A stretch of DNA of 64,000 bases from Candidatus Thorarchaeota archaeon (GTDB taxonomy: Archaea; Asgardarchaeota; Thorarchaeia; Thorarchaeales; Thorarchaeaceae). The stretch covers positions 320,001 to 384,000 of the forward strand of contig CAVSBO010000004.1 in assembly GCA_963726195.1 (NCBI GenBank), written 5' to 3'. Below are positions 2,267 through 51,949 of this stretch, one piece after another; within the stretch, counting starts at the first letter, position 1, and the number at the start of each line of letters is the position of its first letter. A program made the translations under genes and the position numbers. The notes under the pieces are model-generated. The model had not been told where the DNA came from. It did not search any database and saw only the letters and a program-made list of their open reading frames with translations.

Positions 2267-2727
2267 CTAGTATTGGTCGGCTGTCAGGCTTGCGCCTATG
2301 ACCCCTGGAATGAAGATCAGAGCGAAAGATGCTCCAAGATCTATTGCGGCCGCCTTAATCACGCCCCACATCGCTGCATAGTCTGAAATGGTCAGACCCA
2401 TAGACAGCAGTGCGAAGCCCAAGAAGAAGAGGACCATCGTTATGATAGAAACGAAGAACATCCTTACTCCGCTCTTGGAGATCAAGCCTGCAACGAACCC
2501 GGCAACGGCAAGGGCTACGATAGGTCCGTAGACGCCGCCCAATGCGGCCGAGTACGGGAATATGAGCTGAGCAAAGAGCAAAGCTCCCACGCAAGCAGGC
2601 CGCTAGTGATGGCTCCAGAGCCCAAAAGTGCCTGAATCTGGGCGATTGAAAGACCCAGAATCTGGAATGCACCGATTACGACAGACACGAGGAGACATAT
2701 TAGTAGTGCGATTATCGTTCTGAACAT
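2267..2727 (-). CDS. multi-pass membrane protein (apparent frameshift near 2586)
   Basis: Hydrophobic ORFs 2515-2727 and 2267-2590 join as ...GLLAW-GALLF... if one G is added in TGGGAGCT. Confidence 0.75.
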
Positions 2728-2963
2728 TGGCTACGAACACTCCTTGAGATGCAACAGAGTTCTGCCACTCTTACCACCAATCCTGTTCCTTTTATACTTC
2801 TTGGCGATATCCCTTTTCATTCACTGTGGGCGGTATCGGGCCATCTTCACAGACCCTTTTCTGCTTCTGCGACCAGATTAGCGATTCTCTCTTTGAGCTG
2901 TTTCAGGAGCTGAAACACGCTTGGGTTCTTTCTGTATTTGACAGGTCTTCAGAGCTGAACCAA

Positions 2964-4124
2964 CTAACAGACTGCAAGCCCCTCAGGCATTGGAACAGCC
3001 TCGAAGCAGGCGGGGCAAGTCAGGTCCTCGTGAATGTTGAAGGGCTCGTTCTCCTCATACTTGACGCGAAAACTGTACTGGCATTTCGGGCAATGTGCCT
3101 TCACGTATCCCCTGAGCCTAATAGAGGCCATCCATGCATCTTCTGCGAGCTGAGACTCTCCGAGCGCTTGGTACTCAGCCGCGAGTTCCACCCATACAGC
3201 AGCGGCGCCACTGTCATCTCTTGCTCCCTGAGTCAGGCAATCAATCGACTCACGATTCCGACCTAGCAATTTGTACGCTTCATGAAAGTACCGCCATGAT
3301 TCAGGATCGTCTGCGATGCTAGACCTCAACCGCTTCAGGTATGTTTCGCAACCGTCTTCATTGCAGGAACGTTTCGCCAAGACAGCCAGCCTTCCAAGAG
3401 CCTCCGCGTTGTCAGGCTCGAGTACTAGCACGCTGGAAAACAGACTAACAGCTTCTTCGTCATGGCCTTGTCGGAATCGAGTCTCGCCGAGGATGATTAG
3501 AGTTCGGTAGTTGTCTGGGTCTATCTGTTGGGCCTTTTCGACGAGATACTCAGCTTCACTGACCTTCCCCTGAAGAAGCAGTGCGTATGCGTGGTTCGAC
3601 ACGGCGACGATAGACTTCGGTTGAAGCCGCTCTATCCTCTCCCAGATTTCAGATGCCCCTCCATAGTCGCCCAGTCTATGGAGGCACATTGCGTACAATC
3701 CCAAGAGTTTCCTGTCCTGCGGAAATCGAAACACCGCTCTCCGCAACACTTCGCACGCCGATGCATATTTCGTCTCGACGTACAGAACCTTGCAGAGATC
3801 GCCCCATGCCTCTGGCTCCTCGGCATCTAGTTGCACAGCAAGTCTCAGATACTTCTCGGCTTCGTTGAACTCGCCTATGGCCTTCAGAGAGCGACCCATA
3901 ACAAGGGCAAGAACAGCGTGGTCTCCGGCTAAACCCTCTGCTTTTCTCAAGACCTCGACAGCCTTCACAGGGTCTCCAGACTGGAGATGCGCCATGCCCA
4001 GACAAACGAGTACGTCAGCATCCTCTTCTCCCGATTCGAGAATTCGTTCGAGGATAGAGACCGCGTCTTTCGGTCGCCCTTCTTCCAGTGCCCTTGCCGC
4101 ATTCTTCAAGGTCGCAAGCGTCAA
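2964..4124 (-). CDS. TPR-repeat protein with C-terminal Zn ribbon
   Basis: Many TPR-like repeats; C-terminal CPKC...CPAC. Confidence 0.85.
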   Translation of the reverse strand: MTLATLKNAARALEEGRPKDAVSILERILESGEEDADVLVCLGMAHLQSGDPVKAVEVLRKAEGLAGDHAVLALVMGRSLKAIGEFNEAEKYLRLAVQLDAEEPEAWGDLCKVLYVETKYASACEVLRRAVFRFPQDRKLLGLYAMCLHRLGDYGGASEIWERIERLQPKSIVAVSNHAYALLLQGKVSEAEYLVEKAQQIDPDNYRTLIILGETRFRQGHDEEAVSLFSSVLVLEPDNAEALGRLAVLAKRSCNEDGCETYLKRLRSSIADDPESWRYFHEAYKLLGRNRESIDCLTQGARDDSGAAAVWVELAAEYQALGESQLAEDAWMASIRLRGYVKAHCPKCQYSFRVKYEENEPFNIHEDLTCPACFEAVPMPEGLAVC

Positions 4125-4359
4125 CGATTCATTTCCTCTTTATTGCTCGCGAAAGGCCTGAGAGCATTAGCGATTAGCCGTCATTGGCTGTGGGCTTACC
4201 TTCGACCCACGCCATAAGTACCTCACTATATGGCACTTTGAGAACTAGGAACGGTTGCTTGGGTTTGAGGCTCTTGCTCGCAGTTTGTGGCTCATGCAGG
4301 GCGTTCTGAACTTCGTGAGAGAAGCTTTGTTATATCGTAGACGCGGCTCGTAGAACTCA

Positions 4360-5210
4360 ATGTCAAAAAACAAGTATGCCACTCCTTTTCCAGTTCTGCA
4401 GGCCGCGAGTCTACTCAGCTCACAGGTCGCGGATTCAGAAGTTCGATATGTCCCTGAAGCAGCTGGTAACGCCTGATAGCTATGTGGTTGACCTTGGGAC
4501 AGGATCTGGTGTTCTTGCGCTGCTCGCTGCTAAGGCCGGAGCCCGAAAGGTCACTGCAGTCGAAATCAGTCAGGAATGCATTGACTATGCTCGAAGGGCC
4601 GTATCGATGAATGGTCTTGAAGACCAAGTTGAGTTCTTTGTCGGGCACTTCTCTGAATTCCGCCCAAGGGAACGAGCCGACATCGTCGTGTGCGAAATGC
4701 TATCGTCGATGATGCTGGTAGAGCAGCAAGTGCCGGCCTGTTTTCACGCTGCCAAGTACATACTCAAGAAAGGAGGCAAGATGATTCCAGAAAGCGCCAC
4801 TGTATGGTTGGTTCCTGTCGAGAGTCCTGATGCATGGAACAGATTCGACCCTCCTAATCTCCACTTTCCACGATTGCCGCAGACGGTTGGTCCTGAGGAA
4901 TACAGAGACCTTCCGGCGGCTGAGGCAGATTTCAACCTTCGACTTCTCCAGTCGTTCGACCTTGCTGACCGTGGACAGAAAGACGCACTTCGATATCATC
5001 GAGGAAGGAACTCTTCACGGTCTCGTGGGATTCTTCGAGTCCAAGCTTCTCGACGGCATTACGCTCTACATGAGCGATGGCTGGAGAGAACTCTTCCTGC
5101 CTCTGGAAGAACCTTCGAATGTCACAAGAGGCACTCGAGTAGGATTTCACATTAAATACTCACCCGGGCAGTTCGACTCGTTGTCATTGACAACCACCAA
5201 TGCACGATAG
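4360..5210 (+). CDS. PRMT-like SAM-dependent methyltransferase (two apparent frameshifts near 4415 and 4915)
   Basis: ATG at 4360 with TATA-like TTATAT about 25 nt upstream; VVDLGTGSG, KVTAVE, DIVVCEMLSSMMLVE, LKKGGKMIP, then the frame of 4830-5210 gives GTLHGLVGFFE...W...FLPLEEP. Confidence 0.75.
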
Positions 5211-50064: not shown

Positions 50065-50382
50065 GGTCGGGTACGGGAGAACTGGGGTACAGTCCACTCC
50101 CGTGCGCGGCGACGAGAGGTGACTCGTCAGCATTGTTAGCCACCAGTCTGACCTTGAAGACTTCGAGAAGAAGATGAAGCTCAAGCAGGGAATTGCTGCG
50201 TCTGGAGAAGAGAGTGAGAACTGTCTTGAGAAACGTTTGCCGGGTCTGAGACAGTTGCGACTCCAGATTCTGCACCAACGTCAATAGCCTTCTCCCGCAG
50301 AGTCCATGATGCGGGTTGTCAGTGTTTATATGCCGAGAAGCGAAGGCCACAAGCGAAAGCGTGACTTGGACGGGAGTACCTA

Positions 50383-51096
50383 TTGTGTAGAATACCTTGG
50401 ATTGTCATCATGCTAGGACTGATAGTTGTCCTGCCAATGCCAAGCGTCTACGCAGCCAACACCCAAGGTCTTCAATGGGCTCTCAAGACTGGGGACAGAC
50501 TCGACTATGTGGGCACCCGCTATTGGAACAACTCGATGGGTCACGGTATGATCAGCGGGAAGGTGTACCTTCTCGTGGGCTACCTTCCGTCATTACCTGA
50601 CATACTGACCAGTCTACGTGAATTGGATTCTGTCCGAACCAAGACCTATTGGGAGAACGGGTCAGTCCTACCTGATGGTCTCGCGTTCTTCACCTATCTC
50701 CCGATCAACATGCTCCTTGACCTCAATATTCCCTTTTTTCTCCCAGTTGGCAACTGGTCTTTGGTGGGAAGTCTGCCGTACGTCAATGCAACATACACAG
50801 GGTATGTCATCGAGAACGAGTCTACATGGAGTAGACACTACGACTTGGTGCGTCGTACCCTCGCTTTCAACGAGACTGTGAGCTTCCTAAAATCAGACGG
50901 CGCGCTGTATCATTACCGGAGAACTCTCAATATTACGGAGAGAACCCTCAATATTACGGATATCCAAGACCAATTCTATGGGTCTGAAATCTCTCGCATT
51001 GGTGGAGGGATTGACAGTGTTACTCTCGCGGCCATTGCCAGCATTTCTGTTGAACTTGTTGCGGCGGCAATCATAATCAGAAAGCGTCGACGGTAA
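50383..51096 (+). CDS. secreted protein with C-terminal TM anchor
   Basis: Signal peptide, W...GD...Y N-terminal pattern, sequons, TM plus RKRRR. Confidence 0.75.
   Translation: MCRIPWIVIMLGLIVVLPMPSVYAANTQGLQWALKTGDRLDYVGTRYWNNSMGHGMISGKVYLLVGYLPSLPDILTSLRELDSVRTKTYWENGSVLPDGLAFFTYLPINMLLDLNIPFFLPVGNWSLVGSLPYVNATYTGYVIENESTWSRHYDLVRRTLAFNETVSFLKSDGALYHYRRTLNITERTLNITDIQDQFYGSEISRIGGGIDSVTLAAIASISVELVAAAIIIRKRRR
50919..50960 (+). repeat. 21-bp tandem duplication inside the CDS
   Basis: GAGAACTCTCAATATTACGGA / GAGAACCCTCAATATTACGGA, encoding RTLNIT twice. Confidence 0.8.
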
Positions 51097-51285
51097 TCAC
51101 GGTATCAAAGTCTGCTGGTGCATACTAGTTGTCAGTAGAGAACCGCTATTCGATATCTAGATTTCAAGTGACTTCGCATAGACTCTTAACCTCAGGGACT
51201 GGATTGCGACTGAAGCGCACATCGAGTCAGCTTGGACTGCGCCTCTTCCCTGTGGAAAGAAAAAGGGGGGAATCTAGGTTCTTTC

Positions 51286-51949
51286 CTAAATCCACGGTAC
51301 CCAGTGCATTACTTTGTTGAGGATGATAAACGCAAAGATTACGTCAATCACGGCGTTGAAGAAGAGCCAGAGGCGGGTTTGCACCCTGCTGAGAACACTT
51401 CCTCTCTTCGATTTTCATCTCGGTCTTCCCGCTCTGCATCTTCTTCCTCTCTTCCACTGGTATCCTGAAAGGTAGGTGAATGAGGTAGGTGCCTTCCAGT
51501 GCCTTGTACAGTGCATCTCCTGTGACCCCTTCAACGAACCATCTTGCTGCGGTCAATGTGCCGCCTTTCTTCATACCTTCACCCTTCTTTGGATCACCCG
51601 AGCCTGCCCATACAGGCCACTCGTCCAGGAATAGGTGCGATGCATTGCCGATGAAGAACAAGGCCAGTGATGGCGCTATGTAATCCAAGACAGTGATTGG
51701 CGAGAGGAAGTATGTTATCAGGAAGAACACAAGTGCGATTAACGCAGAGTGTGTCCTAATGTCTCTATGCGAAAGGTACTTCGTTTGTTGGTCATAGTCT
51801 GGCAAGTCTGCTCCCCACAGGGCAGCCATGATTCCGACAGTCATCCAGAGCAGATTCTCTTCGTGCCAGCCCGTATGCAAGTTCCACACTATTGCGAACG
51901 ATAGGTACATCAAGAACCCGAAGGTTAAGTGCCATGTTCGATTTGCCAA
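51286..51949 (-). CDS. membrane-bound metal-dependent hydrolase, YdjM-like (apparent frameshift near 51397)
   Basis: H near the N-terminus, LPDYD, HR..THS, SHLFLD; the shifted frame gives a hydrophobic end RLWLFFNAVIDVIFAFIIL...WI*. Confidence 0.8.

Follow-up and report, generated by a model that had tools for sequence, protein, structure and literature searches.

Lesions in Thorarchaeota genes at AGCT and two further words as probable consensus errors of a long-read assembly

Errors at methylation motifs dominate the consensus errors in Oxford Nanopore (ONT) data (PMC6591954, PMC10687267, PMC11610573). In one ONT benchmark they made up ~70% of consensus errors and disappeared once the model had been trained on DNA of this kind (PMC6591954), while modification types on which the model is untrained depress whole-genome quality until the DNA is demodified (PMC10687267). 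Known cases are Dcm methylation of CCWGG in Enterobacteriaceae (Wick et al. 2019, PMC6591954), the “modification-mediated errors” of Chiou et al. (2023, PMC10687267) and those described by Lohde et al. (2024, PMC11610573). A comparable pattern is reported here for a 64,000-nt stretch of a Candidatus Thorarchaeota metagenome-assembled genome (G000:C4:320001-384000, hereafter the window), in which genes such as uvrA and uvrB are broken by small lesions at or beside the palindrome AGCT and at other short words. Similar to the ONT motif errors, those in this genome fall at few short words, each with a stereotyped miscall that persists in the consensus; the genes which they break are whole in the accurate assemblies of relatives, and homopolymer deletions form a second class. 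They differ from ONT Dam/Dcm errors in the words concerned, which are AGCT, (T)GAGAC and GCGGCAG, and in the host, an uncultured Asgard archaeon. In addition, many are 1-nt insertions rather than substitutions, and it is we who infer both the modification and the platform.

AGCT is also the recognition word of M.AluI, which methylates it as 5-methylcytosine (m5C). In archaea, orphan N4-methylcytosine (m4C) methyltransferases specific for AGCT are persistent in Nitrosopumilales, Nitrososphaerales and Methanomicrobiales (groups HG11, HG16 and HG19; PMC10609329). Asgard genomes sequenced by PacBio carry 5-13 m4C or N6-methyladenine (m6A) motifs, and those of Atabeyarchaeia and Freyarchaeia are called by their authors the first Asgard genomes with reported methylation patterns (PMC11529989); no Thorarchaeota methylome was found. 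The lesions of the window belong to a known artefact class: with a probability of roughly 0.8, they arose as systematic errors in the consensus of an unpolished long-read assembly, at a few, probably modified, words, and are not present in the DNA of the organism.

One-base lesions in the window

The genome that contains the window comprises 2.92 Mb in 19 contigs and is 88.9% complete, with 3.9% contamination. Each cited site was read and then compared with genomes of the same genus and the same family through DNA alignments and frame switches in protein alignments. Intact genes were referred to “Candidatus Thorarchaeota archaeon isolate OWC5” (G002), the member of the same genus that is closest to G000 in the genome collection (~80% nucleotide identity) and which is presumed, from its ~80 contigs, to be a short-read (Illumina-type) assembly.

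A preliminary description of the window, made from the sequence alone, had listed 12 lesions breaking otherwise intact genes and had them clustering at AGCT. All 12 are present at, or within a few nt of, the positions given there (Table 1), each in a gene that is continuous in relatives and in which intact orthologues or a paralogue locate the break; a 13th coding lesion, at 11943-11947, was absent from that list. The relatives examined have uninterrupted frames at every lesion site and leucine codons at both positions of in-frame TGA. Nine of the 11 insertions and deletions (indels) of the window lie in AGCT or at most 2 nt from it, where ~0.6 would be expected from a background of 5.4% (P = 2e-10). 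The clustering thus stands for most of the indels, while the lesion near 51397, which lies at GAGAC, and that at ~4922 are not at AGCT. Apart from the lesions the broken genes are conserved, with 85-94% amino-acid (aa) identity to their orthologues (uvrA, uvrB, ABC ATPase, permease and FAD oxidase). On this assembly-level comparison, with orthologues and the paralogue as proxies, the broken genes are very probably intact in reality and their lesions one-base sequencing or consensus mistakes rather than gene decay.

The uvr block (23700-31540, minus strand) consists of a tandem uvrA paralogue, uvrA and uvrB, in an order shared by G002, G014 and G015, the relatives aligned across the block; the two uvrA copies share ~51% identity. 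Over 9.7 kb, the stretch 21846-31556 can be aligned to G002 with 83% identity, and the only unpaired gaps, at 24159, 30374 and 31470, are 1-nt insertions in the window. The uvrB region displays 93% aa identity to OWC5 contig PRDJ01000041.1 (G002:C41). The preliminary description had placed one insertion inside AGCT in the uvrA paralogue (24155) and two in uvrB (30377 and 31468), and the peptides that it quoted do reappear when one base is removed. Deletion of the base at 24157-24159, where the frame switches in eight orthologue comparisons, restores IPQVADRL. The same operation yields RLPSAYDNRP at 30379-30381, again at a protein frame switch, and MADFKLVAPF at 31470, where the frame switches at ~31469 and the orthologous site reads AGCT in G002 and one other relative.

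Both in-frame TGAs had been explained as corrupted AG-CTA-GA at leucine-type positions. At 27410, seven relatives have a leucine codon, within CAGCTC or CAGCTT in three, and a 92%-identical high-scoring segment pair (HSP) crosses the stop; at 17358, the codon is CTG (leucine) in G003 and the protein HSP runs uninterrupted through the TGA. Genome-wide, AGTGA in G000 is matched by ..CT. in G002 at 12 sites, 27410 included, most of which have identical flanks of ~8 nt on each side, as opposed to 3 sites with poorer flanks for the reverse change. Since CT to TG is synonymous in no reading frame, these sites represent a recurrent miscall of AGCTA and not divergence, and this, together with the asymmetry of 12 versus 3, makes the repair of both TGAs well founded. 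The targeted AGCTA/AGTGA comparison replaced a generic scan for in-frame stops against the open reading frames (ORFs) of G002, which was swamped by antisense shadow ORFs.

Five more lesions had been described as lying directly beside AGCT. The adjacency was seen at all five, although two of them, the deletions at 2586 and 32437, also lie in homopolymers. At 2586, G002 and G001 carry one C more, and the frame switches at 2587 relative to three same-genus orthologues. The insertion at 4416 is a gap against G002, G001 and G003 and leaves orthologue residues 1-22 in another frame, which removal of the base rejoins. The T at 18090 is absent in G003; the frame switches at 18092 and deleting the T restores MRKWRRNRTQLISSLMLPILF. 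At 32437, G003 and G005 have one base more and the frame changes from 2 to 1 at 32434-32440. The FAD-linked oxidase affected is 89% identical to that of G003 in nucleotides and 93-94% in aa on both sides of the lesion, with the Pfam domain FAD_binding_4 in the upstream part and FAD-oxidase_C downstream. The insertion at 46808 affects one of two tandem M23-peptidase-like paralogues (45930-47441), each with an N-terminal membrane helix and a C-terminal GWQ(I/L)SYP. No DNA match to the pair was found in the 12 relatives searched, nor an orthologue of the lesioned gene; its tandem paralogue ends in SFHPGWQISYP followed by a stop, and deleting the G yields SFHPGWQLSYP followed by a stop.

Three lesions were reassigned or added. 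The unclear lesion that had been put at 4915 was relocated to ~4922 through a frame switch between DLPAA and RQISTFDF relative to three orthologues, which read DLAAAR and fix the join. No significantly enriched word coincides with it; its form belongs to the BGCT[G]A class, which shows no genome-wide enrichment (1.5-fold, p = 0.29). The proposal to repair AAGTGTT near 51397 to AAGCTT gave way to a simpler one, an insertion at a second error word, GAGA[A]C; the C-terminus of the G002 orthologue (TRIWLFVNALV...) continues in the +1 frame at 51391-51396, and removing one base restores it. The additional lesion at 11943-11947 is a gap against G002, whose 313-aa orthologue can be aligned as far as 11939, its C-terminus following in the +1 frame.

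Table 1. Lesions of the window relative to related genomes (inserted bases in square brackets)
Lesion	Position	Strand	Gene or context
1-nt deletion AGCT-CCC (at 2586)	2582..2588	-	splits a 154-aa gene (2270-2745)
1-nt insertion T[C]AGCT (at 4416)	4415..4420	+	cuts off N-terminus of PRMT-like methyltransferase gene
1-nt insertion GGCT[G]AGG (at ~4922)	4917..4925	+	same PRMT-like gene; not AGCT
AG[A]CT insertion relative to G002	10700..10704		isolated 1-nt gap in a poorly coding stretch, no clear gene
1-nt insertion AG[T]CT	11943..11947	+	replaces last ~18 residues of gene 11130-11954
AGTGA, in-frame TGA (17358)	17356..17360	+	ABC ATPase gene; true sequence probably AGCTA (Leu)
extra T 2 nt upstream of AGCT (18090)	18089..18095	+	ABC-2 permease gene loses N-terminus
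1-nt insertion AG[A]CT (24157)	24155..24159	-	second uvrA paralogue; isolated gap versus five relatives
AGTGAGA, in-frame TGA (27410)	27408..27414	-	uvrA; true sequence probably AGCTAGA (Leu)
1-nt insertion AG[T]CT (30379)	30377..30381	-	uvrB; gap versus five relatives
1-nt insertion AG[A]CT (31470)	31468..31472	-	uvrB, near N-terminus
1-nt deletion between G-run and AGCT (32437)	32432..32441	+	FAD-linked oxidase gene (31745-33189)
1-nt insertion AGCT[G]A (46808)	46804..46809	-	M23-peptidase-like gene lengthened by 41 codons
1-nt insertion GAGA[A]C (GTTCTC on other strand)	51391..51396	-	YdjM-like membrane protein gene

Two suspected features of the window were discarded. A 250-aa “gene” on the minus strand (11538-12288) is an antisense shadow ORF interrupted by several stops, the real lesion (11944) lying in the plus-strand gene, and a suspected lesion at ~33100 is the normal overlap of two intact genes. 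Other isolated 1-nt gaps relative to G002, two of them intergenic (7689 and 63010) and one at the start of gene 2270-2745 or just upstream of it (2741), were left out of the gene-lesion count.

Error words across the genome

For the genome-wide comparison, 989 kb of G002 was taken, 792 kb of which aligned to G000. Class counts at insertions were compared with 60,000 control positions, in addition to an unbiased k-mer enrichment around insertions. Isolated 1-nt indels number 278 in the alignment, of which 192 are insertions and 86 deletions in G000. They exceed the 42 isolated 3-nt indels by 6.6:1, which is the reverse of what coding sequence tolerates. Insertions of the form AGCT[G]A, equivalent to T[C]AGCT, account for 31 of the 192 (25-fold, p = 8e-33), AG[A/T]CT (AG[W]CT) for 23 (7-fold, p = 3e-13) and GAGA[A]C for 19 (12-fold, p = 4e-15), the last preceded by T at 16 of its 19 sites, as judged by eye. 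GCGGGC, which is GCGGCAG with an extra G, was counted among the insertions without a main word and occurs at 7 (19-fold, p = 1e-7). The same base is inserted at the same place at 31, 23 and 19 independent sites.

The preliminary description had suggested a genome-wide comparison of indels near AGCT with those near other 4-mers. Among the 16 four-base palindromes, AGCT is the only one enriched near indels, 5.5-fold for insertions (p = 1.5e-18) and 3.4-fold for deletions (p = 4e-4). The idea of AGCT as the single error word was not sustained, however, as (T)GAGAC and GCGGCAG have stereotyped insertions of their own. G002 has the longer open frame at 41 motif-class sites and G000 at 4, which places the breaks on the G000 side. 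Where G002 has the word with conserved flanks, G000 has an indel at ~1.9% of AGCT, 1.4% of GAGAC and 2.0% of GCGGCAG sites, compared with 0.3-0.4% for control words. An alignment-free count likewise finds AGCTA (ratio 0.81, z = -6.5), ATGAGAC (0.69) and GCGGCAG (0.75) among the words most depleted in G000 relative to G002. What the sequence shows, then, are errors in G000 that favour particular words and follow stereotyped forms.

Deletions are enriched in homopolymers of at least 4 nt (15% versus 4%), and other parts of the genome contain probable long-read assembly junk: on C8 a poly-T run of 1,531 nt directly followed by a 47-nt poly-C run (G000:C8:114800-116377), and at C3:394093-396684 eight poly-A runs, the longest of 135 nt. 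These runs on C8 and C3 are the cause of the 35-fold over-representation of A7/T7 in G000 relative to G002. The 19 contigs at 88.9% completeness, the excess of 1-nt over 3-nt indels, the homopolymer runs and the homopolymer deletions fit a raw, unpolished long-read assembly.

Modified bases, candidate enzymes and alternative explanations

Native-DNA nanopore reads would be the most probable source of such an assembly and, judged by published nanopore behaviour, modification of these words the most likely cause of its errors; unlike the word specificity, platform, modification and enzyme are inferred. The organism would modify AGCT, (T)GAGAC and GCGGCAG; base modification would alter the signal in the pore, and basecallers whose training had not covered it would read the word wrongly. 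AGCT would thereby be turned into AG[A/T]CT or AGCT[G]A (T[C]AGCT on the other strand) and AGCTA into AGTGA, sometimes with loss of a neighbouring base, (T)GAGAC into GAGAAC, and GCGGCAG into GCGGGCAG. The AGCT mark itself would likely be m4C, set by a beta-class orphan enzyme whose gene lies in another part of the genome. That the error pattern can be used as a methylome read-out, with AGCT (probably as m4C, by an orphan enzyme like those persistent in Nitrososphaerota and Methanomicrobiales), (T)GAGAC and GCGGCAG modified in this Thorarchaeota species, is a stronger claim, which we rate at slightly better than even odds.

The enzyme had been expected outside the window, and indeed no DNA methyltransferase gene lies within it, whereas many are present elsewhere in the G000 genome, among them ~nine PF01555 (N4/N6) genes and several PF02384 genes; AGCT specificity was assigned to none. 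Candidates from the two families include C15:113726-114586, C10:20591-21583, C3:854242-855021, C3:195694-196590 and C3:566019-566885. One PF01555 gene (C4:214615-215815) is split into two ORFs and carries, relative to G002, a T[C]AGCT-type insertion at C4:214898. Further methyltransferase genes look split as well (C3:903923-905084, C7:120873-121730 and C8:191245-192060). The only PF00145 (C5) match in G000, at C16:149769-150515, is fragmented by five stops in 750 nt, a density far above the general error rate, so that it may be a true remnant. PF00145 has no match in G001 or G002, two of three same-genus genomes, and an intact 429-aa one in G003. As the C5 match is in pieces and absent from G001 and G002, m4C appears the more likely mark at AGCT than m5C on sequence grounds, and an AluI-like m5C enzyme the less likely source. 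The situation resembles that of the HG11, HG16 and HG19 hosts in the AGCT word, the archaeal host and the enzyme family (PF01555), of which G000 encodes ~nine members. In addition, AGCT is not avoided in the genome (279 sites in the 64 kb of the window), which is what an orphan enzyme would lead one to expect. It differs from them in that no gene is tied here to AGCT and in that m4C is preferred over m5C by indirect reasoning.

Several observations weigh against consensus errors at modified words. AGCT can be assigned to no methyltransferase. Similarity to structures in the PDB gave generic beta-class N4/N6 matches only (CcrM, MboIIA, RsrI, DpnA and N4-cytosine methyltransferases, and weakly M.PvuII), and the C5 candidate was rejected on account of its fragmentation and of having no counterpart in G001 and G002. 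The deletions at 2586 and 32437 are explained equally well by homopolymer runs. Of the isolated insertions, 54% contain none of the three main words, ~7 of these being of the GCGG[G]CAG form; the remainder may be real differences, errors in G002, alignment noise or further words. Finally, only ~2% of AGCT sites are affected, so that the flanks must play a part and the errors are linked to methylation indirectly.

This last point, with the affected sites mostly in particular flanks (AGCTA, AGCTR), also favours errors of basecaller, polisher or assembler that are word-specific and unrelated to modification, in which the AGCT, GAGAC and GCGGCAG k-mers would be handled badly on any DNA; the sequence evidence, after all, displays word specificity and not modification. 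We regard this as improbable, since motif-linked ONT consensus errors trace to methylation and vanish upon retraining or demodification (PMC6591954, PMC10687267), m4C at AGCT is common in archaea (PMC10609329), and a set of one palindrome and two asymmetric words resembles a methylome. A collapse of several strains into one consensus, with the indels as chimeric artefacts, could be suspected in a metagenome-assembled genome with 3.9% contamination. It predicts neither single-base indels at three words nor a recurrent change of AGCTA to AGTGA, and is therefore very unlikely.

The lesions might instead be real, through pseudogenisation in this lineage or a mutational hotspot at AGCT; they are, after all, present in the deposited sequence, of a genome only 88.9% complete. 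Pseudogenes would be expected to carry lesions of mixed kind and size, without context preference and under relaxed constraint. In contrast, the lesions here involve single bases in stereotyped form at three words, and among the genes affected are uvrA, uvrB and those of ABC transporters, which are otherwise 85-94% identical to intact orthologues. Moreover, ~0.35 frame-breaking indels per aligned kb is implausible for a free-living archaeon, and errors of these types are also present outside coding sequence (10702), which leaves real lesions highly improbable. Stop-codon recoding has reportedly been observed in some Asgard lineages, and the breaks could accordingly be ascribed to programmed +1/-1 frameshifting at AGCT and decoding of TGA as an amino acid. 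Recoding should keep the shift or stop at the orthologous position in relatives, yet no frameshift is present at these positions in the orthologues of any relative examined, and the TGA positions correspond to leucine (CTN) rather than selenocysteine, cysteine or tryptophan. Insertions occur as well as deletions, no site needs a conserved slippery site or downstream structure, and the lesion at 46808 lengthens a gene and joins no two parts. Recoding can thus be given almost no weight, and consensus errors at probably modified words remain the preferred explanation.

Consequences for annotation and other word differences

With about one frame-breaking indel per 3 kb, a large share of the apparent pseudogenes, split genes and odd gene ends in this genome would be artefactual. 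Genes affected in the window include uvrA, uvrB, the ABC transporter, the PRMT-like gene, the FAD oxidase and the M23 peptidase. Before gene loss, gene splitting, recoding or new small ORFs are claimed for this genome, the sites concerned should be checked against the error words, whose signatures for annotators are AGCT, AGCTGA/TCAGCT, AGACT/AGTCT, AGTGA, GAGAAC and GCGGGCAG. Polishing that takes homology or motifs into account (Homopolish, PMC8011154; Modpolish, PMC10687267) would repair the sequence, as would short reads. A by-product is the testable prediction of three modified motifs in Thorarchaeota. If true, a possibly ancient archaeal epigenetic mark at AGCT would be extended to the Asgard relatives of eukaryotes, and unpolished long-read genomes in public databases could be mined for methylation motifs with no recourse to raw data.

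Other words differ between the two genomes or were considered as error words. CTAG was rejected, with 0.9-fold at insertions and a non-significant 2.1-fold at deletions; its per-site indel rate is raised (1.0%), for which overlap with AGCTAG may account. Words containing GATC are depleted in G000 relative to G002 (GATC ratio 0.87, AGATC 0.81, GATCTA 0.66), as are CTATA/TATAG (0.76). Neither group is enriched at indels, and the depletion could represent a species difference or substitution-type errors; GATC, for which a species difference is the probable cause, was not retained as an error word. CAGCTG in G002 corresponds to CTGCCG or CGGCAG in G000 at 15 sites, for example at 55842 of the window, and none of the 12 most frequent counterparts of G000 CAGCTG in G002 (5 sites or fewer each) represents the reverse change. 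A miscall of CAGCTG was rejected here, because all 15 sites, with conserved flanks, consist of two synonymous third-position changes in NCA-GCT codons and thus represent ordinary divergence. The pattern may reflect a shift in codon usage or a mild avoidance of CAGCTG in G000.

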